A stretch of 64,000 nt of DNA, from contig OZ076410.1 in NCBI GenBank assembly GCA_964187785.1, positions 83,452,001-83,516,000 of the forward strand. The letters are read 5' to 3'. Below the pieces are notes generated by a model. It did no database searches, was not told the origin of the DNA, and saw only the letters and a list, made by a program, of their open reading frames with translations. Position numbers and translations under genes: made by a program. Shown piece after piece: positions 4,321-53,156 of the stretch (position 1 is its first letter; every line of letters starts with the position of its first letter). The stretch is from Amphiscolops sp. MND2022 (Eukaryota).

Positions 4321-4375
4321 CAACAAGACGGGAGCGTCTAAAATCGGCGCTATATCTAAGGCTCAAAAAAGCGCT
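4321..4375 (+). repeat. Terminal motif of a dispersed repeat family (AACAAGACGGGA.CGTCT..AAGTCGGCGC..TATCTAAGGCTCAAAA); possibly Helentron/HINE-like
   Basis: Similar copies at ~5049-5095 and ~23120-23170 (+), and ~15042-15086 and ~15691-15735 (-). Contains a short AGACG...CGTCT hairpin. Family assignment is inference only. Confidence 0.55.
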
Positions 4376-14300: not shown

Positions 14301-17300
14301 TCGTTTCTGTCCGTGCACTTGCCGAAAACTTTCTTCCTGCAGCTGTTATAACTTTGCTACTCCTTTTCCATGATCATTTTGTTGAACCTCTTCAAGCCCC
14401 TTCAGTAAACTAAAATTAGGTATGTCGCTCAAAGAACCAGAATCGAGCAATTCAAAACCGGAAGCTTTGTCTGTCTAAACTTGCTGTGGCTAGTTGCCTT
14501 TTTTAGTCGGCACTTTTCCATTAAGGGAAAAATGCCCGACTGGCAGTGACTGTTTTTAGTCGGCGCCTTTTCCCTTAAGGAAAAAAGCCCGACTCTTACA
14601 GTGAGTAGTTTTTTTTGTTTTTTTTTTCAGTTGACAATCTCACTCTGAGTGGTCCACTTTTCTTACAATCTTTGTTCACATTTGTTCAACTAATTTTCTG
14701 AGAAGCAGGAGATCGTGGGTTCGATTCTCGCACTAAACCACAAATTTTTTTATGCTTCCAAAAGTAGATGCGAGACCAAAGGTTTGTTTCGTTTCGTTTT
14801 TTTGTTTGGTTTTTTTTCGGCACTATGCGACTTTTTTTTCGAAAATTTACGGATTCTATCAAAGGGTACCCCTTGCATTTTTTTGAAGTTTTCGGTTTGT
14901 AAAAACGTTTAATGAGCCTGAATGGCCTCTTTTTGAGTTTTTCGGCATTGTGCGACTTAAAAAATAATTGTTTCGAAAAAAAAATTTTTGAAAAAAATTA
15001 ATTTTTTGCAAATGTTTCCAATAGTTGTTCCTTGAATATTTCTGAGCCTTAGATATGGCGCCGACTTGAGACGATCCCGTCTTGTTTTTTCTTCAGACTA
15101 CAATCCTCACACTGATCGGTCCACTTTTTAGAAACAATCCTGAAACCACCTGCGCACCTGAGGCCAAGTCCGGCCAGGGGAGACTTAGTCCAAAGGGTCC
15201 CCCCTTTCATTTTTTCACTTTTTCAAGGAAACCTACAAAACCGGACGTGCCTAAAGGGTCCCCCTTTGGATTTTTTTCGGCACTGTGCGACTTTTTTTCG
15301 AAAAAGTTTTTAATGTCTCAAGAGGGTCCCCCCTTCGAGTTTTTTTCGTATTTTGCAACTGAATGTATGTTAATAAATCCCAAAGGGTCCCCCCTCTACA
15401 TTTTTCGGCACTATGCGACTTTTTTTGAAAGAAATAAACTACAAAACCGGACGTGCCTAAAGGGCCCCCCTTTGGATTTTTTTCGGCACTGTGCGACTTT
15501 TTTTCGAAAAAGTTTTTAATGTCTCAAGAGGGTCCCCCCTTCGAGTTTTTTTCGTATTTTGCAACTGAATGTATGTTAATAAATCCCAAAGGGTCCCCCC
15601 TCTACATTTTTCGGCACTATGCGACTTTTTTTGAAAGAATTTTTTTTTCAAAAATTACAAGTTTCTTTCCAAAAAAATGTTTTGCGCTTTTTGAGCCTTA
15701 GATATGGCGCCTACTTTAGACGTTCTCGTCTTGTTTATTCTTTTCGTCGTTCTTTGTGATACTTTGATCTTGTTCTCAATTTTCTGAGTGATTACTGTGA
15801 GAACTTTTGAGTCGCCGCGAATTTTTCAGACTTCGTCGAATTTCCTCAGATTTTAGTCAGTGTTTCTTGAAATTGAACGCGGCTGTTATAGTGGCTTTTC
15901 TTCGGGTTTTCTTCTCAATCCGGTCGAAGTGACCTAAGAATATCTACAATACGCGTTAGATCTGGAGAGGACCAAAAGGTTTCTAAGGATCATCCCTTTA
16001 TATTTTGGCATTTTTCATCAAACGACAATGCTATGTAATGGGTTTTTAGCACTGTCGACTTTTGTTGGAATACTTTTTATTCCGCAAGTCCTCCCTTCGA
16101 TTTTCAGGAGTCCGAAAGTATTTTCGACTACATGTGCAATCGTGAGGTTTTTTCTCCCAACCTTTCAATGAAAATTTCATATTTCTCAAAAACTGTCCAT
16201 ACTATTTTCACAGTCATTGTACACCCAAAGATGCTCGTGCACGCAACAGCCATTTTTAGACTTTTTTCCTTCTCAAAAACTGCCCATACGATTTGAATGA
16301 AATTTTCTACAGTCATTTTACACCATTATAGAGTTCTATACAATAGTGTAAGAAAAAAACTGAACCTTTATTTGTAAGAAATAATTTGGACTGCATGTAA
16401 ATAAAGCTACCATGTTACATGGGGATTTTTTTCGTTCTCTATTTTACTCATGAATTTAAGGGACTGGAAAGACCAATTGAATGTTTGAGATTATAGGTAC
16501 AATCGCCTTAATTAGCAGGTTCTCCTGATACAAATTCTATCGGTAAAAATCTAAAACCGAAAACATAATCCCTAATCTTTGCTAAGAATAGCTGTCTCTC
16601 ACGTATTAGTGAGTGAAATGAAATAGTAGAAAACCCTTATCAAAAACTATACAATACCAATTATCTTGATGTAAATTAGTTGAATGTCTTCAGGAAATGA
16701 GGAAGTACCTGCCAAATAAACAAAAGTTCCAAATTTAGCTCAAAAATGACCAAAAAACAGCCATTTTTCTGAAAAACTGTCCATACGGTTTGAACGAAAT
16801 TTTATACAGTCATTTTACACCAAATTAGTCCTATATGTGCATTGGCTTGAAAATCGTATGACTGGGATGTGAGAAACATAGCCAAAATTAACCCAAAAAT
16901 GGCCAAAAAACAGCAATTCTTGGACTTTTTTATTTTTTTCAAAAACAGTCCATCCGATTCGAACAAATGTTCTACAGTCATTCCACTGCATATTAAGGTC
17001 CTATATGTGCAATTTTATGAAAATCGTATGACCGGGGTTCGAGCGAGTCAGAAGGAAGTAGACCTAAGCCGACTCCTTTACCGCACATGCGGCTCTTGTT
17101 TGGATAGTTTCAGTCAGAAAATCACCTATTTGGTGTCCAAAGTGTCTTTTTATTTTTTTCGTCGTTGAGATTTTCGTGGATAGTTTTTATTCTAGTAAGG
17201 GTTTTCGCTTTGTTTTTTTAGGTCTTTTAGTTAGAAAAAACAACTTTTCAAGCCCAAATGGTTCTCCCCTCGAAGTGTAATATTTCGGATTTTTTGGAAA

Positions 17301-20300: not shown

Positions 20301-23300
20301 AACATGTTTTGAGCTTTAAGGTTATTGGACTTGCTGTGTGGTAAGGTTACAATTCAGTCGACTTCGCTATTGATACTACGAAAACATTCCATGTAATTAT
20401 CGCTATTCATAGCGTGAAACGTTATTGTTAGTTGCCACACTCTTTTCATAGCATTACTAAATACAATAGAGGTTTTCATAAGTAGCAGTGTTTGAGTGAT
20501 TAGGTGGATATGTGACAGGTTGAAGGTGTGAATTGATGAAATTACAAGCGATTGAAATTGTGAACGATTGAATTGGCAGCGAGTTGAAATTGCATAGGAC
20601 GAAATGTCCTAACTCCTCCTGAGGGATCTTACTTCTTTTCTAAGTTGTCAGCTGATCCGTCTAGAACGTGGTCTTCCACAGGTCAATAACTGAGCTACCG
20701 TTGACAGCGTTAAAAGTGTTTTCGCCATTGTTTAGTATGTTCATCTGCTGGTATTCAATATAAGGCGCCAGACTTCCACCACTGATGGCGCCACCATTGT
20801 TGGCGAATCTCCCCATAAAGTTCTTGTGTTAAGATATACGAAGAGAACTTCTTCCACGTTATTTCTTTTGCAAACTCAATTGCATTTACGAATGTAATGG
20901 TAAATTCTTCCTTTTTGTTGGCAGCGCTTGTCGTATATACGCCGTAGCAAGGATAGATTATTTGAGGTATTGTACTGCACACCAAATGCAGTCCAAATTT
21001 TCATTTTTTAATTCAGTTATTTTTAGCAACTGGTGTTTTTCGGCTCAGACAGGGATATACCACGTTGATTTTGTCCTCTGTATCTCCAGAAAGTGCGGTG
21101 ATTGATGAAAGAGTCTTCAGGTACTTGTTACTTGGTTTCGTTCATAGTAGTGAAGTCAGGTTTCTGATCTCCGAGATATTTATTTCTTCAGAGTTCCTAT
21201 CAGCCAACGCTTTAGAGTAGTCAAGTCTCTTGTAAGTGCCTAGGAATGAGAACATTTTTTGGTGATGGACTTTCCTTGTGTGGTTTAGGTAAGCTGCGCA
21301 GTTAGGATCGTTTGCTGCGTGTCTTGAAAGGCAGTTTTCACAGTTGGATTCTTCTGTGTTGCAGTCCCAGTGCTGTGATTTTTCACAGATTTCCCTCATT
21401 TCAGTACGCTTTTACATGTTTTGTCTACATGCCCGTAGTTCTGGCAGTTATAGCATCTGACTATTGGCTTTCCTCCTCAATGAACTCACTGGCTCGAAAG
21501 TTTTGATCGTTCAGAAACTCGTGATGACTCTCCGTGTCGTTGCGGTTGGGATAATGATTTTTGACTGCAACAAGGGTGCTTTTGTCTTTTTACACAAATC
21601 CACGAGCAGTTGCATCGGGGAAGCTTTCTTGTAATGCATTCATACTGGAGTCCGTAAAAACGTTTTCCTTTGGGACATCTTTGGTGATAATGGAGTGATT
21701 CTTCTACAGTTTTCGTGGTCTCCTACAAGTCGTTCATGTCCCTCTGAAGGTTGACTTCAATGCTTTGTCATTTTTTTGGAATCTTTGTGTGTTGCGAATC
21801 CAAACGAAAATGTCCCCTCGTTGTTCTGGAAGAATAATTTTTGGGAATGCTTCGGAGAAACTGCGTTTGATGTCTGTGCTGCTGTTAAAGAACGGATCTG
21901 CGTTCTCGATTAGAAGCACCGCTGTTACATCTCTCTATTGCTCTATTTCAGTTACCACATGAGGGGTTCTTGACGCAACTGTAACATATGTTGATGCCAT
22001 TTTTTCAACTGCACTTTGACAGCTGATTTTTGATACCACTCCGTGGGCGACATTATTGATAGATGGAAGTAGCACGGATAGGTCTTTTGATCGCTTGCGG
22101 ATGCTCTCTCGCTAATATAGTGGAACCAACGATTGCAAGCAGCACATTCGATGGCTCTGGTTCCTGATGTAACTGTTGTTACATCGGTCACAGTCGTCAT
22201 TTTGTTGATGTCAGTCGATAAACCGGTTCAATCTTTTTAGGGGCGTCTTGGCTATAATGTGCAACTGCTGCTCCAAGGGTAAAACAAGAGCTTGAGCTGA
22301 CTTAACAATTTAGCAATCCTTTTCGGATGTTCTTTTTCGTGTCTTCATGCCTTGCTGCAATACCAGACAGTAGAGGTTAGTGGACTGGACTTCCTCAGAA
22401 TTCCTGTGATGAAATTTCGTTCCAACGTAGGCTAGGGGTGAAGTTTCCGAATTTAGTAATTGACTGTAGGTGTCCTGTGATTGCGTTTTGTTTAGAAGCA
22501 TTTTCTTGACGTCAACGGTAAGTATATTCAGCGTTCTCATTTCATCAAATATGCTTGGAAAGTCCCAGGCCTTCGACAGTAAATAATAGCTGCGAATTTC
22601 TGAGAAGGATTTGTAAGGATTTCCAATACCGGTTCAACCGTGAGGTTGGTTTCCGTTTGATTTGTGGGGGGGGGGGTAATATGCCATTGTTGATCGTCCT
22701 TCCAGCAGACTCAAAACGATTTTTCTCAAAGTATTTTTCCAGTAAAAGTCCAAGGTTAACTCCAAGGTCCTGAGTTTTTTGCTTGGGGGTTGCGAGACAA
22801 TCCGGCGATAGCTGTAGATTTATTATAAACAGAAGCACGTCCTAATAAGTAAAGACTGGTTAGAGTGAACTCGCTCCCATTAGGTAAACCATAAGAAATA
22901 GAACGAACTAACGATTTGTCGATTGTTGTGGAGACGAAAATGGTGTTTCGAACCAACCAACTTCGTTTTGAGGCGACCATTGCCAGTCAGGGTTTCGCCA
23001 GACAATAACTTATCTAAGTTCATCACAATAATTAGGCTAGATTCAAAGATCTAGTTATTCGCCACATCGTTAAAAAAATACTGATGTAGCAATATTGGAA
23101 GTATTTTGTATTTTAAACGGGAACAAGCCAAGAACGGCATAAGTAGACGCCATATCTAAGGCTCAAAAAGAGCAAAAGAACTCCAAAGTGTCAAGTATTC
23201 TCTTACAGTACCCGAGAAACCTAAAAGTTAGACCGAAGTGGCGCTAAAAGGGGGACACCTTCGGATTTTTCACCATCCATTCTGTGGCGAAACGTCAAAA

Positions 23301-35396: not shown

Positions 35397-36333
35397 TTAC
35401 TTCAAGTCACACAAAGGGTGAAACGGTTGATTTCCGATCGCATCGTGTAGATATTGCATCTCTTTGGTTTGAAAGTGAACGTAAAGCACGATGTATTGCT
35501 GCAAACCTAATGATGGTTCACCTCGGAACCAGTGAATTATATCACTTGCAACTACATCGCCGTTTGTTGTAATAAATTCAGTACTCTTATCAGTTTCTCT
35601 ATACACCCCCAACCACATCGAGTATGAACCAAATTTGCTGACAAAAAATTGCAGTTGTTCAGACGTTCCGTTTAAATCGGAAAATAATTTGCCGCCTGAT
35701 TTCACAGATGTCTTTGGCATCGAACCATCCCATCGTATCTGGTATAAATTTGAGCCAGTATAACGTCCGATGTGTCTCGTTTGAGCCCTTTAGTCCACCG
35801 TGCGCAGAATCAATGATGATTTGTCTGGCCTCCACTGCTTTGTACTCTTCTTGCGAATCAATCTCCACTTCAGATTGCCAAGAGCTCCAATGACGATCAA
35901 CTCTTTTCTTGTTTACTCTACAGTAACCAATGTTTTCATCGTCTTGGACATCTTTTTCTGTACCAGCTTCATTGCAAAAAGGTTGATAGTTTTGTGTCAT
36001 TCCATAGTAGAGACAACTCGGAGACTCTTGAATCAAAGAAAGATTTGTTCCGATTGAAAAAACATCTTCTGAACTTAGACCACAAACGTTTGGAAAGCAG
36101 AAATTGAACGACCGACACAGTGAAGTTTCAGCGCATCTCAAAGCACATTGACTTGGAGATATGGCTTTGCATTTATCAATGTTGCTTCCAGTCAACTGCA
36201 GGCCCTCCTTGAAATCTTCCCACGCCATGCTTCTTCTGGCTGCAACAGAAGTTCTCAATCCTTCGGTAGGTGACAAAAAGTGAGACATAAATGTGACCAT
36301 AAACAAAAACACACTTCGAAAGTGCATAACCAC
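35397..36333 (-). pseudogene. Secreted PAN/apple + C-type lectin domain protein, intronless, one frameshift at ~35700
   Basis: Signal-peptide-like N-terminus; PAN motif QCALRCAETSLCRSFNFC..VCGL; CTL start MGWFDAKDICE continuing in another frame as SGGKLF..MWLG...WFRGEP...LHD......PLC. Confidence 0.75.
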
Positions 36334-36470
36334 TGGTAAAGGTATCAGAATCTCAAACTGGGCAAAATTTAAAAAATGGAAATTTCGTGTCGGGACTAAA
36401 GACGAGGAAAGTGAAATTTATTTTGTTGGATGTGCAAAGTGCATGAACAATTTCGTCAGAAATACTATAT

Positions 36471-38786
36471 TGTCACAGCCCGCTCCCGGTCTGGCGTGTG
36501 GCTGTCGTCAGATGAAAATAGGACGGGGACATGGCTGCAACCTCAGATTCCCGAGATGGTAACTCGTTAAATTTAAAACTTAATAAACTGTGACTAAAAC
36601 ATACGTCAGTGCTGCGCATGCTATAAAATGATAATAGAAAACAGAAATCAAAATGAGCAAAATGATTTCACGCATTTCCGGCACGTCGTTCTTGTCTCGT
36701 CAAATTGGAAACATTCGCCACCTGAAAACTTAATTGAGGATACACATTAGAATAAAAGCCATAATCCGATCTAGATGAAAAATATCCAAAACAGTCTATC
36801 AGGAAAGAACACCAATAAGAACTAAAACAGGAAATACTTTGAGACGGCACGCTGAATTATTTTACGCCTTTCTAAGAAAGGCGGCTTAATTGCACTCTGA
36901 ACCGCAATCAATGCATAATAGGACGGTACCGCGCTGCTGAATAAACAAATGTTGGTATTACACGCAATTTTCAATATTTGTAGTGACGCCATTGACACGT
37001 CGTTGACTAGTTAACTAACTAGAATTAATCTAAATTACTCGTCGCTATGACGTCACAAACTAGGCAGCTAACCAGAACTTTATTCCAAATTGTGACGTCA
37101 GCACTTCGTCTTACTTGGTAGCTAGTCAGAAGTTCATTCTAAAATATGCGTCAGCTACTCGTCAAACTTGGCAAGCTGTCAAGCTAGCTAAGAAACTTGT
37201 CGTTATGTTGTCGCAAATCCATCAAAATAACTGTTTTCATCCATCCAGATTAACATGATGCGAGATGATTGTAACAGATTCTATGTAAACGATGCGCTCT
37301 TTTCAGACTAAAATGGGAAAAATACAAGGATATATCCACATTTTGTCGGGTAAATTATGACTAGATCAGAATCACTTAGGGACTAACTTAAAAGGAGAAT
37401 TTTTCCACTTCTAATAGAACAAAAGTCACGGTTTATTTCCTAACACTAAACAAATGTCGATATTTTACTACCTGAGGTATTTTTATATATTTGCTGTAAT
37501 TTGTGTCATAAAGCTGTTGTTGGATAAACCTTTGTACCATGAATTCATCAATCCATTCTACAAGACGATGTCATTGCGTTGCCTTATATTTATACTCGGA
37601 AGATTTTGTACCTGTTAATGTTATTAAAACTAAATGCTATTCCTCCAAATGAGATTGTTAATGCTAATGCAAGCTCATTTTACAATGCAGTTTAAAGTTG
37701 ATGTTTAAAGTTTGTTCTGTTAAATTTGATTTGTAACCTTGTCGCACTAGTCACGACAAGCCAGAGTTGGGGCATACACTTGCATCTAGTTTGTTGAGGA
37801 CTGTAAATTTAATTCAACCAAAAGATTGCGTCCCAAATTATTTCAAAACCTTTTCCTAGCATCGTTCAAATAACCTTAATTTGAAATTAGTCATCACAAT
37901 TCATCGAGTTGATTTCCAAATTGAATATTAGTTGTTCACGTCAGCGTCACCTCAGCGTCATTTTTCCCGCGAACCAAGTCAGTAAAACAGGGAAATATTT
38001 CCGGTTTGACAGACTGAAGTAATATCTACTTCCTGCTTGGGAGGAAAGCAAAAGGACGCCGAGCTGAAATGATGTGATCATGGTTGATGACTAATGCTAG
38101 ATTGGAATTGCCGTGTCTCAAAAATTGACGAAATGTCGACGCAAAATTGGGAACAAAATGATTTTTTTCATCGAAAATACAGGAAATGACTAATTGTTCG
38201 AGGAAAATTAGGATTTTAATCGTGATCAAATAAAGCTAGGAGGGTATATATAGGATGATTTTCATTGACTCGGGGACTCAGTCTTTTGCAATTGTACAAT
38301 TCAATTGAATTTTCAATTTCACTCTTGCCTTGTTTGTCAGAAAATCTTTGAAAGAAATTCAATTCTTCAAAATCAAACTTTTCTACAAAATGTCAACAAC
38401 AAGAAGCCAAAAAAGAAGGAACGATCAGCAAAGCACCAGTGAGAACGTAAGTGAAGGCTTGATTTCACCCATAGTAGTAGGGAATCCTTGTTCTTCGAAT
38501 CAGGACGATGAGGTAGCGGGGCCGTCTAAACCAAAATCCCCCAGGATCGAGAATAGTCTCCTTGAAAACTTTAGAGCTTCCTTAAAGGAAGAAATAACGT
38601 CAGAGATCAAAAATCTTCTTATCGAATCCCAGAAAGAGATGTTGAAACTTCTTAAGCCTGAAACAAGAGGGAACGTTAGAGAAAATACCGAAGAAGAGGT
38701 AGAAGAGGAAACTAGGAGTTTCTATACTCCAACAAAATCAGTTAGGATAAGTTCTATTCAAAACGACCCGATAATATGTCGTAACA
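36471..38786 (+). repeat. 5' LTR (2316 bp)
   Basis: TGTCACAG...CGTAACA; only 5 substitutions vs the 3' LTR seen by eye (37132, 37624, 37650, 38524, 38572) and no indels. Confidence 0.97.
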
Positions 38787-39829
38787 TGGTGACAGGAGTT
38801 CTAACCGATTCCACTAACCAACCAAAAAGAACGAAAGCCCGGTCTCAAAGTCAACCGGCGTCAAAAGAACGCCCAATTGTAGCGAGAACTCTGTTTGCGT
38901 CGGAAAAAGGCGACAGCACCACGCTGCCTATGCCAAAAGCGTTAACGGCATCTCTCCCAACGTACGACGGGAAATCGGAAAAATTTGAATTATTTGAGGA
39001 CCTTTTCCGTAACAACATCAAAATGTATCCACACCTCACGGAGATACAAAAAATCAATTATTTCCATTCACTGCTACGAGGAGACGCCCTCCAGGCGTTT
39101 TGCAACATAGAAGACACGAAAAAGGATTCCCTTGACGAAATAATGACAATTTTCAAGCGACGTTTTGGAGACTATTTGTCCATGGCCAAGGCACGATGCG
39201 AATGGGATGCGCTCAAATTCGATCCCTCGAACCAGAAACTCCATGAATTTCTAGACATACTTCAAAAAACTGCCAAGGAAGCTTTTGGCTCTGAAGCACA
39301 ACAATTTATTGATAAGGCAATCTATGCAAAGATGCCAGACCACGTCAAGAAAATACTAAACAAGGCATACCTCGAGGATAAACCTTATAATGATATAGTA
39401 CTCCACCTAGAACGCGAAATGAGACTTAACGGCCTCGGAACACCGGATGAGGTAACCCTAGTACCACTAAACAAGGTAGAACCAGCTCCAGCAAAAACTG
39501 AGTCCAAACAAGCCGACAGCACGACGCAAAATGTCAGAAAAGGATATTGCTTCTACTGCAACAAATTTGGACACTATAAGGCAGAATGCAGAAAAATGAA
39601 GAGAGATAAATGGATGCAAACCAGGAAAAACAATGGTCAAACTAACACGAGTGCAGGCAAACAGTTCAAATGCGAAACATGCGGCAAACCCCACAAAACG
39701 GAAGATTGTTGGAACGGAGCCAACTCTGCCAACGATCCACGACCTAAGCGTCACAATAACCCGGAATCAAAAAGGGACGTTCCCGTCCAACCAACGACAG
39801 CTAACCCTGTCACGGAATCAAAAAACTAG
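38390..39829 (+). CDS. gag: Gag (479 aa), initiating inside the 5' LTR
   Basis: Open ORF with capsid-like core (LPTYDGKSEKFELFEDLF) and two knuckles, CFYCNKFGHYKAEC and CETCGKPHKTEDC; the ATG at 38390 is 397 nt upstream of the LTR end. Confidence 0.92.
   Translation: MSTTRSQKRRNDQQSTSENVSEGLISPIVVGNPCSSNQDDEVAGPSKPKSPRIENSLLENFRASLKEEITSEIKNLLIESQKEMLKLLKPETRGNVRENTEEEVEEETRSFYTPTKSVRISSIQNDPIICRNMVTGVLTDSTNQPKRTKARSQSQPASKERPIVARTLFASEKGDSTTLPMPKALTASLPTYDGKSEKFELFEDLFRNNIKMYPHLTEIQKINYFHSLLRGDALQAFCNIEDTKKDSLDEIMTIFKRRFGDYLSMAKARCEWDALKFDPSNQKLHEFLDILQKTAKEAFGSEAQQFIDKAIYAKMPDHVKKILNKAYLEDKPYNDIVLHLEREMRLNGLGTPDEVTLVPLNKVEPAPAKTESKQADSTTQNVRKGYCFYCNKFGHYKAECRKMKRDKWMQTRKNNGQTNTSAGKQFKCETCGKPHKTEDCWNGANSANDPRPKRHNNPESKRDVPVQPTTANPVTESKN
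38787..38798 (+). other. Primer-binding site TGGTGACAGGAG
   Basis: Begins with TGG (complement of tRNA CCA) immediately after the LTR CA; conserved in the relative at 2372-2383. Cognate tRNA not identified. Confidence 0.8.
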
Positions 39830-42800
39830 ATACGCCGCGCCTGCGCTTCGGGGAAACAGTAGACGCGAGGGCGTATTCACCAAATGATCCCCCCACTAAC
39901 TACACCAACGAAACAACCACAGAACGTGACGGAACTCCAACAGAGGACTGGCTGAGACGTCAAGCACTCGCTTCCATACGAAGACCTCTCATACAAACCG
40001 AAAAGGAAATAACACAAGTTGAAGATCATAGAGATGACCACAAACAACACCCAAATCCTCTCATCCAGCCACCCCTCACCAACACAACACAATCCACCAT
40101 AACTCAAACAGAACAAACCGAAAACGCCCTCGACGACCAACCATCGTCAACACAGACAAAGGAAGATACCTATGGCTCCACCCAAGCACCTATCTTCCCA
40201 GAGGATTTCCCCACATCTCTTAACTCTATCAAAGAGTATGTTACTGAAAAAGATGGAGAGATGTACTTACCACTCCACTCCACCATAGTCCTCAAAAATA
40301 GAAGGAGAATGCTGTACTTGCCGCTCGAATTCGGCGAGATAACAATGGATGGACTCGTCGACTCAGGCGCATTCATCAATGCTATGTCCTGGTCAGATTA
40401 CAACGCAATCAAAATGAACAGTGATAGTTGTGTCATAAAAGAATACCCCCAACCCCCCTTCAAGATCGAATGCGCAAACGCACAACTAGAACAACCAATA
40501 GCCACGGCAGACATCCAGTTCAATATTGGAACATATACCTTCACGGATACCTTTGTCATCCTATCGAAAACATCATTCCCCATCATAGGACTAAACTTCA
40601 TGAGAAATCATCAAGCAGTAATTGACACTGCCAACGGAACCATCAATTTCCCGCACGTCGAAATGACGCTAGCCATGACGGACGAGATGAAAAATGCAAC
40701 CCGAAACCGCTCCAAATAATGGCAGAAGGAAATCAAACCCTACCGCCCCAACAAACAACAACAGTGAACGCAATAGTAATAACCACAAACATGCATGACG
40801 TCACTGGAGCGGTACAACCACTACCACAATTTGATGAAGCAGCAACAATCATTGTCGCACCAGCACTAGCGACAGCCCACAATAAAAGGCTCAACATCCG
40901 AATCGCCAACTTAACGGATTTCCCTCATACAATAAAGAATCACACAAAACTGGCCGAACTACAAATCTTCAGACCCGAGGACACGAAACAAATACGTCCA
41001 GTAGACGCCGCCGCACTCAAATTGCTAGAAGATCCTGATGACACCCACATGTACGTCAATGAACTCATGAAAGCCAACGAAACTGAACAAGGTGATGAAA
41101 ATTTCTGGTTCCCCACACCTGAGAATCCGGGAAACGAAGAAGAACATACACCAATCCAACGACGGATCTTGAAAGAAATTCGCGAACTCATCCAAAAAGA
41201 AAAACTCGACCCAACACAAGATCAAGAATCACGAAAGAAATTTCTAGACATGTTCCAATGGGAAGGCTCACAAATCGAAGGAAGTGACAGAAAGCAACTC
41301 GAGCAAACGATAGTCGAATACAACGACATCTTTGCGCGTCATCGCCTTGACATCGGAATCAACAATAACTTCAAAGTCAAATTAACTCCGAAAGATGAGC
41401 GGCCAATTTACACACAAAGTTTGCCAGTACCAATCAACTTGAAAGAGGACCTAACGGTTGAATTGGCGCTAATGCACAGATACGGCATCATAACGACATT
41501 ACCATTTTCGAAATATGCAAGTCCAATTTTCGCACAAAGGAAACCAAATGGCAAACTACGTCTACTCGTCGACCTGCGAAAAATAAACGCACTAATATCG
41601 GATGACTACATCAATAATAACCACCCAGTCAGCACCCTGTCAGACGCAGCCCGAAACATATGCAGGTAAAAAGCTATTCTGCAAACTAGACTGCTCCCAA
41701 GCATATCACTGCTTGCAAATGGCAGACCAAAGATCTATAGAGATGTTAGCATTCAACTTCGCAAGCAGAACATTTGCCTACAAACGGCTGGCACAAGGAC
41801 TAAGCAGAGCACTATCGGCATTTTCAAGTTTCATGAGGGAATATTTGGATAAAGTAATCAAAGCTGACCAATGTGCGCAATATGTGGATGATATCGGAAT
41901 TGCTGCCAATTCTGTGACGCAACTGATACGCAACATACGGGCCGTATTTGAATGCATCCGAAGAGCGGGACTCAAATTGACGATAGAGAAATGCCATTTT
42001 GGAGTGACTGAAGTCGAATTCCTCGGCAGAACGATTACACCGCACGGAATCGCTCCCCAAGACCACAAAATCCAGAAATTTTTAGCCAATGTGAGATTTC
42101 CAAAATCAAAGAAACAAGTACAGAGGTACATTGGTTTCGTCAACTATTATCGCAACTACATCCCGCGATTATCCGAAAAACTGCTCGGATTTTACGAACT
42201 ATTGAAAGCAGACAAACAAATTAAGGTCACAGAAGAACTACTCGATCACTACAAAGCGATCAACGCAGCATTGGCGCAAGCCTGCGGATTGGCTCTCAAA
42301 CAACCAATCACAGGACGACAATACATCCTAATGACGGACGCCAGTTTCCGAGCCTCGGGCTATGCGTTGATGATCGAAGAAGACAACGACAAAAAACTCA
42401 ATTCAAAAAAGAAGACATTTGCGCCAGTCGCATTCGGGTCGAAAGTATTCTCCCCAGCACAGCTAAAAATGTCAATTTATTGCAAGGAATTTTTAGCAAT
42501 ATACCACGCCTTCCTAGAATACAGCCATATCCTGTGGGAAACAACTCTACCGACCTTAGTGATGACAGACAACAGATCAGTAACGCGGTTTTTCCAAACA
42601 AAAGCCATACCGCCTACCTTATGGAACGCGTGCGACTATGTGCTACAATTCAACTTTCATATAATGCACGTGGCTGGTACGCAGAATACAGCAGCCGATT
42701 TCCTATCGCGAATCGATCTCAACCCCAAGGAGAGAGTCGAATTAAAAATCAGAGAGGACATCACAATTCGCCCAATCCAAGTAAACCTACAGTCTACTGA

Positions 42801-44757
42801 CGTCGCAGATGAAGAACAACTTTTCTTTCTTCCAGATGAAACGATTGAAACCGAAGAAGACATTCTTCTGCAAAAAGAACAAGCAAGACAAAACGCGCGC
42901 GACGAACACACGACAAAACTTAAACTAGCCATCAAAGAGACTAACCCAATCCCAATAAACAAAGCTTCCTACACCTTCGGGGCAATAAAGGAAGATGCGC
43001 GCATTAGAGTCGAGCAAGACTCCAGTTTAGTCCTCAAAGCTATCAAGAAAAAGTTAATATGTGAAGAATACGACAAACATCTCTTGCAGACTGACCCGAC
43101 TGCCAAACGTCTCCTAGTCCATGAAAACAGACTAATCGTAAAAGATGGAGTACTAATGAGCAAATACTACGGAGAATGTGGCCAAGTCACTCATCATCAA
43201 ATCCTAATCCCTGAGCATCTGATCACAGAACTCCTGAAAGCAATCCATGGACAAATGGGAAAACACCCTGGGATCACAAAAATGATCCAAGAATGCAGAA
43301 CAAAGTACTACTCCCCTGGACTAGCAAAAAGAATCAAACAATGGGTAATGCAATGCGAAGATTGCATCAGATACAAAAGAATCAATAACAGCCAAATCAG
43401 ACCAAAAATGATCAACAACACAGAACACGTTTTGGGCCCGGAAGACATCTTAGAAATCGACATACTGCCCAATCTACCAAACTCGGCGGGATACCAAAAC
43501 ATTGTCACAATGATTGATGTATTCTCACGCTACCTATTCGCATACCCAACGCAGAATGCCACAGCGAGGACAATTGGACGATGTATAGTCGACGTCATGA
43601 CAAGACATGCCTACTTGCCGACAATGATTCTATCAGACAAAGGGTCGCAATTCAGATCAGAAGTAGTCGCAGAAATAACTCAAATACTCGAAATTCAAAT
43701 CAGCCACGCGTCTACGAAACACGCACAAACGATCGGAATTTTGGAAAGAACACATGCCTCAATCAAAACTGCTCTAAGAATATCGACGGGTGAAAGACGC
43801 TCGATGTGGCACAAGTATGTCCAAATTGCAGTAATGAACTATAACACAACCTATCACGAGACTTTAGGCTGCGAACCGTCTACAGTGTTCCACGGACGTA
43901 TACCTTACAACGTTCTCGATTTAAAACTCGGCATAAAGCCAAAGTGGAAAACCACGCCCAATTCGGACATTGCAGAACAACTCCAAAAGCAAATTGATGA
44001 AGTACGTGCGACAGCAAAAGATAACATCATGCTGTCTTACCTTAAATACAAAAAATACTACGACAAGAAAGCGTCTGCAGCTCCACTGAAAATCAATGAT
44101 TATTGCTACATACTCAATCCGAAAGCCGACAATCAGTCGACAAAGTTCGCTTTTCAAGATTGCATTTGGACTGGACCATATGTGGTAATAAAAGTACTCT
44201 CAAACAATAACTACACAATCCGGAAAATCGGCACCAGATACACACAAACGCTGCACCGAATCCGAATACGACCCTATAAGCCAGAACAGCGCATACCCGA
44301 TGTCACAGTACGAGCAAATGAATACCTTCCTGATCCAGACGTCAAAGTATCGCATAACGAATGGTACGCGGTATCTTGGGAAACGGATTTTGGAAAGCAA
44401 ATAGACGAACATGACACGCTAGGAAAAACAGGAAACGAAAAACAAGTAATGATACAAGAGGTGACGAACACGCATGACGAAAAGACGACGCAGCAAGTCT
44501 CGGAAAATCAGACTGGAGACATGAATGACGCAACGCCGCCGTCTCCGGATTTTTCAAACCTTACTGAAGACGCGGGGGATAATCCGTACATATTCCGCCC
44601 CCCACCCATTGAAAGTCCACCTATTCCCCCGAAATCACCGCCTACAGTAGTCGGATATAATCCGAGAAAAGTAGCAAAATACAACTTGCGACCTAATCCT
44701 AAACCTAATGCTAATCCTGACTTCAGACGACTTGACGCATTGACTACGACTCACTAG
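39805..44757 (+). pseudogene. pol: Pol (aspartic protease, RT, RNase H, integrase) with two frameshifts (~40690, ~41650)
   Basis: LVDSGA protease; RT QYVDD; RNase H MTDAS; integrase HHCC (H..MGKH...CEDC) and D..D(SDKG)..E core; split over ORFs 40261-40719, 40719-41669 and 41602-44757. Confidence 0.92.
39820..39874 (+). promoter_or_regulatory. -1 programmed ribosomal frameshift signal (A AAA AAC plus downstream hairpin)
   Basis: Heptamer 39820-39826 in correct phase just before the gag TAG; the -1 frame is open from 39805 into the protease; GC-rich stem at 39832-39874 (ACGC/GCGT, CGCG/CGCG, CTGC/GTAG) after a 5-nt spacer. Confidence 0.8.
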
Positions 44758-44945
44758 AAAGGAAAAGACTATCAGGAGTCCAAACCGAATCGGCTTGACA
44801 ATTTTCAATTTGAGACTACTACAGCCCCTATAACTTCATTCTCATTACATTCAATCTGTAAAGTTGCCCCACGGACAAGAAAACAAACATCAACAATAGA
44901 TAAAAACTATAAACTACAACACTCCAAATATAAACAAAACTCAGT

Positions 44946-47900
44946 TCAGTCGCCTTTCGAACTAGATGCAGTTTTCTCACCAGCCGCTTTTCCAACACTC
45001 TTCCCACTTCTCGACACAGCTGGTTTGGCAGTGTTCTTCCCACTCTTCTTATCATCTTTTCTGACAACTGATTTGTGACTACTTGACCCAACTCCAGAGG
45101 ACGCAAGTTTTTTCTGATCCTTTTTATGACCCAGCAAGGACACCATACGCGAAGGCACCTTTCCTTTGTCCGATCCATCGACACTGACAGTAGCCGCATC
45201 AGACCCGACGCTTGAAGACTGACTACGAGAACGAATAACAGATGACGTCCCAGTACCACTTACAGAATGCGAGCCCCGACTGCCACCATCACGAAGTCGC
45301 TGATAAGACTCCTTTTTCTTGCCATCCAGATATGCATCAAACAATCCCTGGTAACGCTCCACAAAAGTGCTATGTCCACCGCTGCAAATTCCTTCCCAAG
45401 GATCGAAAGTACCAGACGACATGAAATCGCGCGAACTAGCGATAGCTTCCCGAACTTTATCCATCGTATGCTTAGTGAAGAAAGCACTAAGCTTATAATC
45501 AGGAGCAGAAACACAACTTTGCACCCCACGAATGCAAGACGTGACGACGATGGGAGGGACAGCACAGTTTTTTAAATCAAAATCGACAGTTGGATAGTCA
45601 GCGAGACGCCTCTGTACAACCAAGCAACATAATCTAAACACTCGATATAGATTTTTGCGCGACTGCAACCCATAATCGGCGACCAAGTAAGCAACAATGT
45701 CCTTGATGTCCTCAGCACTACGCTCGTCATTCACATGTCGTGAGCGCACATCCACCACAAAAGTAACAAACTCCTCAGAAGCCGCTTTCAACTCGACAGA
45801 TGACAAGGACCCACTTCTCTCCAAAACTTGAGATAACTTCTTGAATGACATGAAGACGTGCTTGTCATCCCCCTCCAATAACAGCTCAGGACAAAAGCAG
45901 TATATCCCTTCCATAAACTGATTGGAAACGGCACACTGTGAGAGAATTACCTCCACAAGATGATCAAAGAACTCACGACACCGTCGACGGAAGTCCAGGA
46001 ACTCGCTTGTCCCGCGTCGCAGCAAATCAACCCCAAAGTCATGAAGCACAAGAAAACTATCCATATCAGCTTTTTCAAAAGCATCAAGCTTTGACACGTC
46101 CATGAAACTTTCCCAAGCTTCCAGAGGGGGCAATGACGACACCTTCCGACTTCGTGACAGAAGACAATACACAAACTGACATAATTCGAAATAATGGTGG
46201 AATCCATAATCCGCTCGTTTGGTCGTCTGCTTCTTAAAAAAACTGGCATCTAAACACAACCCAAATCCGAGACTCATACCAACCCTCCGCCTATACGACA
46301 AGAGATGACATGCAATACTTACGCAACTCGAGGACATGCACCAGGAGCCCCAGACGAAGTTCATTTGTATTCTCACTATAGACCAGAGTGTCCGTTCCTC
46401 GCATCTAAAATATAACCAACTGGATTATTCAAATACACCAGCCACCGAGGACACTATGCATTACAACTACAAAGGAATATAAAAGGAAAAGAGAAAACAA
46501 AACCCCCCCCTCTCCCTTACTCTACAAAAACAATTACCCTATCAGTCGCACTCCGGAGATGTTTGGGGCCTGTACATCGAACAAACACTCGCACAAACTC
46601 CCAGATGGACAGTAGATCCACGATCACGCCTCGCAATTGTGGGAACTCAACACGACCAACGATGACGCACTGACGCAAGTTAATGACGTCTTCCATCCAT
46701 GACTCTTGTAGAGCCCCTCGTAAACGCAGCAACAGAAAGTCTATCATGCTGTTAACTTCCAGCATTCCAAACACAGCCTGATCCGCCTGACGGTAACACT
46801 GGAGGAACACATCTGTGTCAAATTCAGAGTACATCACGAAGGTACGGCCGTCAACCCGATTGTCGCTCAGCACACGTGTGAGCGTCGGACTAGCACCCTG
46901 CAGAGAGATGGGCAACTGACAAGAGATGACGCTATCAAGAATCCGGGAGAGACAAGACAGCTCAGCACAAGGAACACGCTGACCAAGCGCCTCAACACGA
47001 ACACAGATGGACTGCAACTCGGCGTCGTCCCAGGTGCGCACAATACAATACAACCCATCGTGATGCTCTTCAAATGTGACACTGTAATCTTTGAACGCAT
47101 CCACTCGAGCAAAAAGAGAACGTAGCACCCGAGGGAACAGTGCACGGCAGATCAACGACTAAAACAAGAAAGACACCCTTTTGACTTACTGCCAAACCGA
47201 CCGTCTCTACCCCCTCCCAACAATGCACAAAATCCAATACAAAACCCTACAACTTCAAAGAACAACAATAAAACTTACCAGAGTTTCAGCGCGACTCCAC
47301 ATCAAATTATACAACGGGTTCTCCGGCCCGAGGGTCGCTCGGAAACACCCCCACAGTTTCCGCAGTAGCACATAGCTACCACCAAGTCGCAGCAGCTCCG
47401 TCAAACAATTCACAAGGGTCATCAAAGGAATAGTTGAATCCACCTTGCTACATGCGGGAAGCAAATCTTCGGGGAAGCTGAAACCTTCAGGCTTCTCCTT
47501 ACAAGGACGGGAAAGGTACTCGTCACGTTGTGCCGGCGACAGCTCCATCGGATCCATAAGGCGATTGAAAACTGGGAGGTCGTGATGCACTCGATACGTC
47601 ACATCCAAATTCCAATGCCTGGGTCCCATAAAGTGCCGAGCCAACTCTCCAGCTCCGCGCGTCTCCATTGAAACATCGCGTCCACAAATCGTGCAAAAGA
47701 AGGATGTCGCCACTCCAGTACTTGACCCAGTGACGAAGAGCTCGAAGACAGGATTGCCCTTCACCATATCCTTCCGAAGACGCTTCCGAGCACTGTACGT
47801 CCGAACGCGACGACGTGTTGGCCCAGCCTTCTCCAAGCTCGCCTCCATGCGACTGACTAATTCCTCAAACCCTACAATAGACAACTCAGAATTACAACCA

Positions 47901-48973
47901 CATTGCGCATACCAAAAGACCAAACCACACCATCAAACCAACATAACCAAGAATGGAAAAGTTAAACTACCATCTAGAATAAAAGGATACTAACGAGCAA
48001 CAAACGGCTCCACAGTCCGGGTCTCCAGTTCACCAGCAACAACCTCTCCCAGATGCGCGACCTGCTGACGAGACAAATGACCAACACCCTCATCACTGGT
48101 GACGATCTCGAAGCTGCGTTCCTGCTCTTTGGGAGGCATTAGGGTCACGCGACGTCGCTTCCCAGACGAATTCTTAGCAGCCACGGCCGCAACACCACTA
48201 ACTACAACAACAAGAAACCCATAAATACCCCACGAGGAAAACACAACAACCCACCCAACAAAAAGAGAGGGAAAAAGAAGGAAAGAAGAAAGGAAAAGAA
48301 GAATTTTAACCTCGTGTAGGTGACTGTGTAGGTGTCAGCTGCTTAGGACTACCACTGTAATGAGGAAGAAAAGCACTGAAGCGAGGAGATGTCGTCGCAT
48401 TCACTCCAGTCTCTGCCTCAGACATTCCTTCCCCTCCAACTACCTTCTTTTCTCCGGGGGGACAAGCAATCTCACCTCCGTGAGATGGAACAACTACAGT
48501 CGCAGCCTCAGAAGGAACACCCCCAGCAGCAAAGCACTTAAGGTCAGGCAACAACTGCGACAAGGGAACGTCGAGCCCTTCGGTTTCAGTGTCTTCGGCA
48601 GCAATTTGACCCTCTGGCGGGTCAACCAAGAGAACATCACCAGTTGACTGATCAACAGCCAAGGTATCAGCAGTAGCTCCAGAAGCTGGCAAATAGGCTT
48701 CCTGTACAGGAAGTGGCACTAAAACATCATTTCGAATATCGGCGCGCCAGAAAATCTAAGCTATGGAAGTGTGATGCAGAAAAGGCCTAACTGTAATCAA
48801 CATACTATCCATGAAAGCTTAATGGATTGAGAAATGATGAACTCACCAGCAACTACTCGCCGAACCTCATCAGCGTCACTGTGGCGCACATCAGTCTCCG
48901 AAAAGACGAAGTTTGTTTCATTGCCACTCTGGGCTCCGGGATCATGGCGGGACGAAATGTGATCACCGTCCAT
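44946..48973 (-). CDS. Spliced antisense cargo gene, 7 exons, 1113 aa; zinc finger + hAT-transposase-like fold, catalytic motifs apparently lost
   Basis: Exons (minus) 48973-48847, 48718-48311, 48201-47995, 47871-47279, 47158-46538, 46404-46323, 46249-44946 total 3342 nt = 1113 codons + TGA. All six introns (73-133 nt) are GT-AG and phase-compatible. Contains CTIC-x15-H-x5-H (CTICGRDVSMETRGAGELARHFMGPRH). Confidence 0.85.
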
Positions 48974-49019
48974 CACAAACAGCAGTGAATCTGAAAACAG
49001 AACGAGGATGAAAACAACA

Positions 49020-49330
49020 ACCAAATTGACGTCATCATAACGGTGACAAACTTAAAGTTGGCAAACCACCAACGAAAATGACGCTGGCATAACGTCAGTA
49101 CCAAAAGTTGATTGGAAAATCAGCGAAATCGACGTCGGCATAACGTCGACAAAAAGGTTACTGGATTATTAATCCTATAATCTAAAATGACGTCATCATA
49201 ACGGTGACAAAACAAAAGCTAGCTAAGCTAGCGAAAATGACGTCAGCATAACGTTGACAAGTTTGGCTAAAGCGGATTAATTTAATTTGCAGCCAATAAA
49301 AACACGACGTTATCAAAACGTCAACACCTG
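49020..49330. promoter_or_regulatory. Array of ~6 TGACGTCA(T/G)CATAACG(G/T)TGACAA-like motifs between divergent ORFs; candidate bidirectional promoter
   Basis: Copies near 49025, 49078, 49130, 49187, 49237 and 49305, lying between the antisense ATG (48973) and the ORF3 ATG (49501). Confidence 0.55.
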
Positions 49331-49500
49331 TTAATTGGAAAGGATTAAAAGGATTAAAATGATTGTTTAACCAATCAGAATGAAGGGATTTATCCTGAAA
49401 TTCGCCTTAATCCAAAAAATAATCCTAAGTTCATTGTGGAACAGTCAACAAGTAGAATACAGCAGCACTGAAGACTACAGACTTAACAATAGCTACAAAA

Positions 49501-50214
49501 ATGAACGGACTCAAGAACGTCTATGAACTCATCGATATATCTTCAAGCGAAGATGAGGAGGAAATTCTGAAACGAGCTTCGACGCCCATTCCTCGCAAAA
49601 GTGTCCCCAACTATAGAATAATACTACAGATGTCACACTCGTCGAATGAAGCCACAGCGGACGAAGAGGAATGTTTCGACATCTCAACGGATTCCCTCGA
49701 GTCAAGCTGCAAAAAGCTAAAACTTAGTTCCAGCCTGGAATCAATTGAATCAGAGACGCACGCCCCGCAACAGGACCCTATAAGAATTCGGAAGGAAGAA
49801 CTGCCAGACAGCCCAGAAAGTCCCGATGAGAGCATGAGTTCCGATGTATTTGTAGTGGAAGAATCAACAGAGTCAGCCCAATCGATAACAAGCAGCAGAG
49901 TAGCAGAGTATATTGAAAAAATACACCAAGAGGACTCAGGCTCATACTTCAGCACACCTCCCGGAACGCCAAAGAAGATCAATTTCCGGCCCATAAGCCC
50001 GCTGAACGACTTAGAAGACCCAAGCTTCACCCGCTCGACAGCAGTTCACTATCCTGGCCCTCTCACAACAAACTTCATGATGAGACAACCTGGGAGAGCC
50101 GTTTTCCCCAGAGGAGTGGCCCTGTCACAGCCCGCTCCCGGTCTGGCGTGTGGCTGTCGTCAGATGAAAATAGGACGGGGACATGGCTGCAACCTCAGAT
50201 TCCCGAGATGGTAA
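49501..50214 (+). CDS. ORF3, 237-aa acidic/Ser-rich protein with a Cys/His C-terminal motif encoded in the 3' LTR
   Basis: Intact ATG-to-TAA ORF; last 30 codons inside the LTR; a colinear homolog exists at 1006-1759; no signal peptide or TM segment. Confidence 0.85.
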   Translation: MNGLKNVYELIDISSSEDEEEILKRASTPIPRKSVPNYRIILQMSHSSNEATADEEECFDISTDSLESSCKKLKLSSSLESIESETHAPQQDPIRIRKEELPDSPESPDESMSSDVFVVEESTESAQSITSSRVAEYIEKIHQEDSGSYFSTPPGTPKKINFRPISPLNDLEDPSFTRSTAVHYPGPLTTNFMMRQPGRAVFPRGVALSQPAPGLACGCRQMKIGRGHGCNLRFPRW

Positions 50215-52438
50215 CTCGTTAAATTTAAAACTTAATAAACTGTGACTAAAACATACGTCAGTGCTGCGCATGCTATAAAATGATAATAGAAAACAGAAAT
50301 CAAAATGAGCAAAATGATTTCACGCATTTCCGGCACGTCGTTCTTGTCTCGTCAAATTGGAAACATTCGCCACCTGAAAACTTAATTGAGGATACACATT
50401 AGAATAAAAGCCATAATCCGATCTAGATGAAAAATATCCAAAACAGTCTATCAGGAAAGAACACCAATAAGAACTAAAACAGGAAATACTTTGAGACGGC
50501 ACGCTGAATTATTTTACGCCTTTCTAAGAAAGGCGGCTTAATTGCACTCTGAACCGCAATCAATGCATAATAGGACGGTACCGCGCTGCTGAATAAACAA
50601 ATGTTGGTATTACACGCAATTTTCAATATTTGTAGTGACGCCATTGACACGTCGTTGACTAGTTAACTAACTAGAATTAATCTAAATTACTCGTCGCTAT
50701 GACGTCACAAACTAGGCAGCTAACCAGAACTTTATTCCAAATTGTGACGTCAGCACTTCGTCTTACTTGGTAGCTAGTCAGAAATTCATTCTAAAATATG
50801 CGTCAGCTACTCGTCAAACTTGGCAAGCTGTCAAGCTAGCTAAGAAACTTGTCGTTATGTTGTCGCAAATCCATCAAAATAACTGTTTTCATCCATCCAG
50901 ATTAACATGATGCGAGATGATTGTAACAGATTCTATGTAAACGATGCGCTCTTTTCAGACTAAAATGGGAAAAATACAAGGATATATCCACATTTTGTCG
51001 GGTAAATTATGACTAGATCAGAATCACTTAGGGACTAACTTAAAAGGAGAATTTTTCCACTTCTAATAGAACAAAAGTCACGGTTTATTTCCTAACACTA
51101 AACAAATGTCGATATTTTACTACCTGAGGTATTTTTATATATTTGCTGTAATTTGTGTCATAAAGCTGTTGTTGGATAAACCTTTGTACCATGAATTCAT
51201 CAATCCATTCTACAAGACGATGTCATTGCGTTGCCTTATATTTATACTCGGAAGATTTTGTACCTGTTAATGTTAATAAAACTAAATGCTATTCCTCCAA
51301 ACGAGATTGTTAATGCTAATGCAAGCTCATTTTACAATGCAGTTTAAAGTTGATGTTTAAAGTTTGTTCTGTTAAATTTGATTTGTAACCTTGTCGCACT
51401 AGTCACGACAAGCCAGAGTTGGGGCATACACTTGCATCTAGTTTGTTGAGGACTGTAAATTTAATTCAACCAAAAGATTGCGTCCCAAATTATTTCAAAA
51501 CCTTTTCCTAGCATCGTTCAAATAACCTTAATTTGAAATTAGTCATCACAATTCATCGAGTTGATTTCCAAATTGAATATTAGTTGTTCACGTCAGCGTC
51601 ACCTCAGCGTCATTTTTCCCGCGAACCAAGTCAGTAAAACAGGGAAATATTTCCGGTTTGACAGACTGAAGTAATATCTACTTCCTGCTTGGGAGGAAAG
51701 CAAAAGGACGCCGAGCTGAAATGATGTGATCATGGTTGATGACTAATGCTAGATTGGAATTGCCGTGTCTCAAAAATTGACGAAATGTCGACGCAAAATT
51801 GGGAACAAAATGATTTTTTTCATCGAAAATACAGGAAATGACTAATTGTTCGAGGAAAATTAGGATTTTAATCGTGATCAAATAAAGCTAGGAGGGTATA
51901 TATAGGATGATTTTCATTGACTCGGGGACTCAGTCTTTTGCAATTGTACAATTCAATTGAATTTTCAATTTCACTCTTGCCTTGTTTGTCAGAAAATCTT
52001 TGAAAGAAATTCAATTCTTCAAAATCAAACTTTTCTACAAAATGTCAACAACAAGAAGCCAAAAAAGAAGGAACGATCAGCAAAGCACCAGTGAGAACGT
52101 AAGTGAAGGCTTGATTTCACCCATAGTAGTAGGGAATCCTTGTTCTTCGAATCAGGACGATGAGGTAGCGGGGCCTTCTAAACCAAAATCCCCCAGGATC
52201 GAGAATAGTCTCCTTGAAAACTTAAGAGCTTCCTTAAAGGAAGAAATAACGTCAGAGATCAAAAATCTTCTTATCGAATCCCAGAAAGAGATGTTGAAAC
52301 TTCTTAAGCCTGAAACAAGAGGGAACGTTAGAGAAAATACCGAAGAAGAGGTAGAAGAGGAAACTAGGAGTTTCTATACTCCAACAAAATCAGTTAGGAT
52401 AAGTTCTATTCAAAACGACCCGATAATATGTCGTAACA
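50123..52438 (+). repeat. 3' LTR (2316 bp)
   Basis: Near-identical to 36471-38786 and followed by the TSD TATAT. Confidence 0.97.
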
Positions 52439-53020
52439 TATATAACATCGAAAAAAGACGCGGAAGGCAAATTTAATATTTCGAGATGATTTTTTGGAAT
52501 CATAAGAGGCTGTACATTTTGGGAATACAGTCTTCGTCTTCCAAAACACGTAGTCAAAACGAATCGCTTTGAAGATAGGCCTTTTGAAAATATATACCTT
52601 TCGTTCAAAATGCAGTGCAAGAATCAAACATCAAACGTTTAGAAAAATTTACGAGTTACCTTTTGCCACTTACCATCTTCTTCCAAGACATATCGGCTCC
52701 CTAATTTTTCGTGTAAAGCTCAGTTTTGCAAACTGGCCCTTCTTTTCTTCAGGTTAATTTGTCATCTTAATGCTATCCAAAGTTCTGTCTATACCATTTG
52801 TTTTGTTTCCAACATTCGACTTCGATTTTTTCCAGGTAGTACCTTGAAATTCTGGAGCCGAATTATCTTTCCAGAATTTCTAATCGAAAATGTTTTCTAA
52901 AATGAATTTTGACAGAACCTGAAAATTTCGGCTGAGCTGGGAATTGGACACATCAAACAAATTTGGCTTCTTCATCGGTCCAAAAATTGTTATCATCAAA
53001 ACGAATTGGGAAGCAATGTC

Positions 53021-53156
53021 ATATCTTGTGTTTGTACGAGACTATTCTGACTAAATATAGCAAAAAGTTGTTTTTCATTGATAGAGAATTCTCTATCAAT
53101 GAAAAACAACTTTTTGCTATATTTAGTCACAATAGTCTCGTACAAACACAAGATAT
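53021..53156. repeat. 136-bp spacer-less palindrome (68-bp arms, one mismatch) centred on GAATTC
   Basis: 53021-53088 is the reverse complement of 53089-53156 except at one position. Confidence 0.95.

Follow-up and report, generated by a model that had tools for sequence, protein, structure and literature searches.

Here, we describe an antisense gene carried by a Ty3/Gypsy long terminal repeat (LTR) retrotransposon of ~16 kb, found in a 64,000-nucleotide (nt) stretch of the Amphiscolops sp. MND2022 genome (hereafter the window, meaning this whole stretch). The element (36471-52439) encloses the gene, which lies on the minus strand and has seven coding exons and six introns, with a single reading frame over GT-AG introns and a predicted product of 1058 amino acids (aa). 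It is a selected, family-wide accessory gene and a fixed part of the element family. Its protein probably descends from a hAT-type transposase, an ancestry that is unproven, and, given such an origin, it is very likely catalytically dead. The carrier qualifies as Ty3/Gypsy by its TG...CA LTRs, target duplication, gag, and protease, reverse transcriptase (RT), RNase H, and integrase in that order.

We take the antisense gene to be real, with its splicing inferred from conservation. Across introns 3-6 of nine relatives, 70 of 72 splice sites have kept canonical sequences; the exons of these relatives are ~55-65% identical, and their introns diverge. The exon-2 donor at 48476 is GT or GC in eight of nine relatives, and a later donor (exon end at 48311 instead) gives 1113 aa, reproducing exactly the protein of an initial annotation of this DNA; the two predicted models differ only in the low-complexity N-terminus. 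That annotation covered 44946-47871, which takes in exons 4-7 only, and all of the peptides it quoted were found on the minus strand in the order given. It had also described a low-complexity N-terminus of ~250 aa; the low complexity is confirmed, while the length comes to ~190-240 aa depending on the donor. The N-terminus is acidic (31 D/E vs 14 K/R in aa 1-192), and the C-terminal tail is basic (22 K/R in 113 aa). Chance open reading frames (ORFs) are ruled out by the conserved splice sites together with a ratio of nonsynonymous to synonymous divergence (dN/dS) of ~0.09.

A search of the 1.07-Gb genome with exon 7 returned 7697 first-look candidates, of which 132 were scored and all matched, and exon 5 returned 6133 (150 scored). 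A second clade, found via the neighbor of one fetched locus, yielded 5791 candidates (150 scored), and a third, found via a database relative, yielded 6973 (104 scored); these candidate counts are not copy numbers. The 101 rows examined included 10 duplicate loci, leaving 91 distinct loci in three clades. At 89 of them, the tail of pol lies on the opposite strand within 0.8 kb of the antisense gene; one of the two exceptions is truncated and the other rearranged. Because all 91 were picked by the antisense gene, they show that the gene resides in Gypsy elements, not that every element carries it. One deletion derivative (element K, L124-L126) keeps the antisense gene, the sense ORF, and the LTR, without most of gag-pol.

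Antisense proteins are 56-99% identical within clades and 17-22% between clades, and the integrases at the same 22 loci with both genes are 88-99% and 52-66% identical, respectively. Based on the Nei-Gojobori method applied to exons 4, 5, and 7, the antisense gene has a median dN/dS of 0.09 in clade 1 (range 0.06-0.15; 8 of 153 pairs with 0.1<dS<1.5) and values of 0.07-0.10 in clade 2 (2 of 66 pairs), the remaining pairs being too close or saturated; the integrase gives ~0.03. Purifying selection of this strength implies that the protein serves the element. "Retained as cargo," the wording of the initial annotation, is therefore too weak for a gene with this dN/dS, conserved splice sites, and a place next to pol at nearly every locus. 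The exon-7 profile also matches 1236 clusters at 50% identity, and none of the cluster members looked at carried a name. For two exon-7 relatives (P0083 and P0132), the best scored match in this genome is just 32% and 35% identical, so the family probably reaches other genomes. IMG/VR contained no relative, and word-indexed homolog searches gave just one chimeric gene call and further family members.

The case for hAT ancestry draws on structure, profile comparison, and motif order. The exon-5 model (predicted local distance difference test score 54) has an RNase H-like topology, and in Foldseek, Hermes ranks 4-5 with weak E values (0.026-0.029), the two Hermes chains among the first five matches aligning over the whole of exon 5 (208-209 columns). 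With hhalign, hAT profiles gave P 0.04-0.12 in the predicted register: the best match to the DUF4371 hAT profile puts E420 on the first catalytic Asp, and 143 collinear columns fall on the hAT C-terminal (PF05699) region (P 0.043; 1 of 25 shuffles as high). A global profile test against Tip/DUF4371-type hATs gave z 3.3-3.9, with 0 of 100 shuffles as high at three block sizes, and each protein half matches its own hAT half alone (z 2.9 and 2.6 vs -0.6 and -0.65); controls (reversed query, RT-RNase H, integrase) stayed at z ≤0.3. The C2H2/BED-like zinc finger, C-x2-C-x16-H-x5-H, keeps its ligands in 27-28 of 28 copies over three clades, and zf-BED scores just E 0.52 in 2 of 24 exon-4 members.

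Several results weigh against this ancestry. No single hAT test is significant by itself, and the z-test is our own script, with a template chosen after the motifs had been seen. In hhalign, the reversed hAT profile equals the real one against exon 5, the full core gave P 0.28 in the wrong register, and the D2 and CxxH registers shift with gap settings. We found no Pfam hAT match in the window exons, 34 exon-5 members, 24 exon-4 members, or 42 exon-7 relatives; PDB sequence searches with the antisense protein were blank, in a search where a hAT profile, as positive control, retrieved Hermes (E 6e-5). Hidden Markov model cross-searches with true hATs of this genome were negative, Hermes is not in the top 50 of either VIA-align list for exon 5, and the exon-7 model has no fold match in the PDB by Foldseek or VIA-align. 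In global mode, hhalign gave only trivial overlaps; the ESM Atlas yielded only unconvincing helical or EF-hand leads, and a viral fold library only weak RNase H-like matches for exon 5. PF14291 matched nothing, controls included, and carries no information. Altogether, the hAT-type origin claimed in the initial annotation is weakly supported by the topology, the Hermes matches, and the in-register profile signal, and finds no support in the Pfam and PDB sequence searches or in the fold of exon 7.

No inverted repeat of ≥40 nt flanks the antisense gene, in a search that left out shorter terminal inverted repeats (TIRs), and no TIR-bounded copy was seen among the 91 loci; their flanks are Gypsy pol and LTR. 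A recent nested hAT insertion was rejected. The same genome holds apparently intact Ac-like hAT transposase frames of 610-697 codons as well as a two-frame Tip/DUF4371-type copy (L141-L148).

The chemistry of hAT transposases requires the DDE triad and the CxxH motif (PMC4763223). In the window copy, the three DDE slots hold E420, Q477, and I858, a slot assignment that rests on weak alignments, with the D2 slot placed by a predicted strand and the invariant G478 rather than by a stable alignment. Neither the D1 nor the D2 slot holds an Asp in any of 28 copies. Glu occupies the third slot in 4 of 125 sequences, and this slot is followed by Arg in 53 of 137, as it is in the hAT "ER." There is no His at 497-503 in 28 copies, and Cys is found at 500 in 12 of 13 clade-2 copies. 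With the same reservation about the alignments, the reported absence of the triad and of CxxH is supported, though weakly. The RW motif had been called missing as well, and here we differ: W544, like G478 directly after the D2 slot, is invariant (28 of 28 spliced copies) and aligns to the RW tryptophan (Hermes W319) by hhalign and by two of four gap settings, so that only the Arg is gone. Other near-invariant acidic residues exist, which means that an unrelated catalytic activity may remain.

We propose that a hAT-type (Tip/DUF4371-like) transposase gene was captured, in antisense orientation, by an ancestral element of this Gypsy lineage. By established logic, that orientation would account for the persistence of six introns although the element is copied through RNA: antisense introns would not be spliced from the genomic RNA and would survive each round of reverse transcription. 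Transcription of the gene would start at a divergent promoter of its own, close to the 3' LTR. Its protein would have lost DDE chemistry and kept the zinc finger, RNase H-like scaffold, acidic N-terminus, and basic tail, and would now work as a regulator in the nucleus, binding DNA and activating or de-silencing transcription of the element that carries it. The finger, acidic N-terminus, and basic tail fit a nuclear regulator. Hermes BED fingers are described as binding short subterminal repeats (PMC10368747). Transposases can be sequence-specific activators, including of cognate copies, and domesticated transposases recurrently lose DDE residues, according to a preprint text that does not mention LTR elements (bioRxiv 10.64898/2026.08.24.746577). 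Taken as a whole, with promoter use, nuclear DNA binding, and activation, this role of a DNA-binding activator or anti-silencer has, in our judgment, slightly less than an even chance of being right.

The intergenic region between the accessory ORFs is probably a divergent promoter, judging from its motifs. These we take to be CCAAT boxes and cAMP response elements (CREs); CCAAT boxes and several TGACGT(CA) units are kept in all 10 clade-1 elements (the window copy and 9 of 9 relatives). The motif TGACGTCA also occurs in two copies in each LTR, besides the intergenic array.

The antisense cassette behaves as a unit that changes hands between elements separately from LTR and pol. Element B shares its LTR and gag with E and F (mostly >90%), its pol with G (93-99%), and its cassette with H (86-93%), and the LTR interior of H is unrelated to that of B despite the shared cassette; C and I likewise have the cassette in common (89-94%) and not the LTR. 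These mosaics suggest frequent recombination between subfamilies. More generally, in elements B, C, E, F, G, H, and I (L023-L040), the LTR-gag, pol, and antisense cassette each have different nearest relatives.

Part of this evidence counts against a regulator of the element's own promoter. Elements whose LTRs are unlike exchange the cassette, and antisense proteins that differ by ~40% go with similar promoter arrays; no lock-and-key co-evolution is therefore seen. Moreover, TGACGTCA is presumably a classic host bZIP (basic leucine zipper) site. The proposed role gives no account of the free swapping, the constant array, or the strong selection on a protein expected to act in trans. The natural swaps between LTR types are at the same time ready-made specificity tests.

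Two other roles could be served by the same protein. As an integration or pre-integration cofactor, its finger and transposase scaffold would attach either to the target DNA of the host or to the ends of the element's cDNA, thereby tethering or importing the integrase complex. Strong purifying selection fits such a core life-cycle role, the finger and basic tail are retained, and antisense ORFs of plants have been suggested to act in nuclear import or in an accessory capacity (PMC7264820). Yet the cassette has been swapped against near-identical integrases (B vs G: integrase dS 0.046, antisense dS 1.59), and the antisense protein falls to 56-65% identity where the integrase is at ~95%, which would be unexpected for a tight partner, so we consider this role unlikely. 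A little less probable again is a counter-defense protein whose target is not a DNA motif but host factors of the small-RNA, chromatin, or restriction machinery, and whose dead RNase H fold would serve as a scaffold for binding nucleic acids or proteins. The antisense gene outpaces pol by far in its divergence and is swapped as a unit, as an arms-race allele might be, and the many clusters found by profile point the same way; however, pairwise dN/dS is far below 1, and the invariant finger suggests DNA binding.

The protein might instead come from outside the hAT superfamily: its RNase H-like fold could stem from an exonuclease or from a different DDE superfamily, and it might still be catalytic via other residues. 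Given the collinear, half-specific signal to the Tip/DUF4371 profile and a predicted order (finger, then RNase H core, then a long insertion of helices, and last the C-terminal motif) that matches hAT organization (PMC4763223), we give this origin a small chance. Least probable by far is that the protein acts as a dominant negative on true hAT transposases (the initial annotation had suggested interference with hAT elements) or that it is inert cargo. True hAT elements are present in the genome (at least 150 scored PF05699 matches), but the antisense protein has no detectable sequence similarity to them, which makes mixed oligomers unlikely and leaves that suggestion unsupported, and the retroelement would have no obvious gain. 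One related relic in the window does lack the antisense gene; inert cargo is nevertheless ruled out by dN/dS and the conserved splice sites.

If the regulator reading is extended to the history of the element, a class I lineage would long ago have domesticated a transposase of class II (hAT), turning it into an antisense accessory gene rich in introns. This gene would now pass as a module between many subfamilies of Gypsy elements, here and in other genomes, and would provide the element with a sequence-specific activator or anti-silencer of its own, comparable in a retrotransposon to TnpA and VANC. We offer this fuller account tentatively, as more doubtful than the regulatory role by itself. 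If true, it would be a transposase domestication by another mobile element and not by the host. Selection on the gene is not far below that on the integrase, and its ancestry in a DNA transposase is traceable, though weak. The antisense gene may also help explain the high element copy number in this 1.07-Gb genome.

Among known systems, the gene resembles plant Gypsy antisense ORFs and transposase-derived regulators; it is neither an active hAT transposase nor a hAT transposon. Antisense ORFs of plant and fungal Ty3/Gypsy elements (maize Grande gene23, RIRE2, Retand TRP28/PF04195, and Boty) share its position between pol and 3' LTR, antisense orientation, and family-wide conservation; the Grande ORF has its own promoter, and a nuclear regulatory role has been proposed for such ORFs (PMC7264820; PMC11963269). 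The window gene differs from them in its six introns, length of ~1060-1110 aa, zinc finger, and RNase H-like core, and has no PF04195 match. Plants have supplied most of the known antisense accessory ORFs of LTR retrotransposons; a 2020 review gives the origin of most of them, and their function, as unknown and finds no similarity to other transposable elements (PMC7264820). Compared with hATs of the Tip/PRKRIR/ZMYM1 (DUF4371) type, with Hermes as the solved structure, the protein shares the invariant G after the D2 slot, the RW Trp, and weak collinear profile similarity, and its finger, RNase H-like core, inserted helical region, and C-terminal motif appear to follow one another as they do there; it lacks their DDE triad and CxxH His and any PF05699 or PF14291 match. 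The domesticated transposase-derived transcription factors ZBED1/DREF, ZBED6, and FAR1/MUSTANG, and the regulators TnpA and VANC encoded by transposable elements, have likewise kept DNA-binding parts and lost catalytic residues, and sequence-specific activation or anti-silencing has been proposed for them (10.64898/2026.08.24.746577). Those regulators are host genes or serve DNA transposons, whereas the window gene is multicopy, mobile, and part of an LTR retrotransposon. HBZ of human T-cell leukemia virus 1 (HTLV-1) is a bZIP protein. It is an antisense-encoded nuclear accessory protein (PMC11963269), as the window protein may be; its fold is unrelated, and the window element has no env-like ORF. 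We found no description of the antisense gene in the literature, a search outside which lay the repeat databases Repbase and Dfam, most subscription papers, and supplements.

The coordinates of the gene and its carrier are collected in Table 1.

Table 1. Parts of the antisense gene and of the retrotransposon that carries it (window positions)
Feature	Position	Strand	Remarks
Exon 1	48973-48847	-	acidic low-complexity N-terminus
Exon 2	48718-48476 (or to 48311)	-	acidic low-complexity N-terminus
Exon 3	48201-47995	-	acidic low-complexity N-terminus
Exon 4	47871-47279	-	basic patch, zinc finger C252-C255-H272-H278, helical linker
Exon 5	47158-46538	-	RNase H-like core (b1-b2-b3-a-b4-a-b5), then helices; E420, Q477, G478, W544
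Exon 6	46404-46323	-	82 nt; AG/GT kept in 9/9 relatives
Exon 7	46249-44946	-	helical; putative remnant of hAT C-terminal catalytic/dimer region; Ser/Lys-rich basic tail
5' LTR	36471..38787	+	2317 bp, TG...CA; final ~400 bp contain gag start
gag	38390..39829	+	begins inside LTR; CCHC knuckle; DUF1759 E 7e-9, weak Retrotrans_gag and zf-CCHC (Pfam)
pol	39805..44757	+	protease, RT, RNase H, integrase; Pfam Asp_protease (weak), RVT_1, RT_RNaseH, Integrase_H2C2, rve
Conserved intergenic region	49000..49440	.	CCAAT boxes and array of TGACGT(CA)-containing units; repeat family D8
Sense accessory ORF	49501..50214	+	237 aa, acidic/Ser-rich, terminates inside 3' LTR; conserved in clade 1
3' LTR	50123..52439	+	2317 bp

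The two LTRs are 99.78% identical (5 mismatches), and TATAT, a 5-bp target duplication, is present on both flanks of the element; thus, the insertion is recent. The pol copy in the window is broken near 40.7 kb and 41.6 kb and occupies three frames, and the relatives B, C, and E have protease to integrase in a single frame. Gag begins ~400 bp inside the LTR (38390-38787, repeated at 52042-52439) and continues through the LTR end and primer-binding region, an arrangement common to clades 1 and 2. Between pol and the 3' LTR, the order is antisense gene, conserved intergenic region, and sense ORF. The sense ORF has dN/dS ~0.22 (15 pairs), no Pfam match below E 0.1, and no hydrophobic segment (maximum hydropathy 0.76); clade 2 has a 295-aa ORF in a similar place with no significant similarity to it. 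An env-like gene was ruled out, as no segment exceeds hydropathy 1.52.

Elsewhere in the window, the relic mentioned above lies at 3-2258 on the minus strand; in it, part of a pol gene adjoins a promoter region, sense ORF, and 3' LTR, and over 1.8 kb its identity to subfamily A is 88%. At 5607-8102 (+), four open frames that overlap one another (151-379 codons) do not match element proteins. A PAN/apple-domain ORF at 35659-36417 (minus strand) ends 53 bp from the insertion point and is probably a host gene or repeat cargo. Short inverted and tandem repeat families with 19-nt units, which look like miniature inverted-repeat transposable elements or satellites, occur at 4315-5094, 8593-9532, 12356-12395, 15027-15742, and 23115-23181. 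Finally, a near-perfect 136-bp palindrome with 68-nt arms and zero spacer (53021-53156) lies 580 bp past the 3' LTR.
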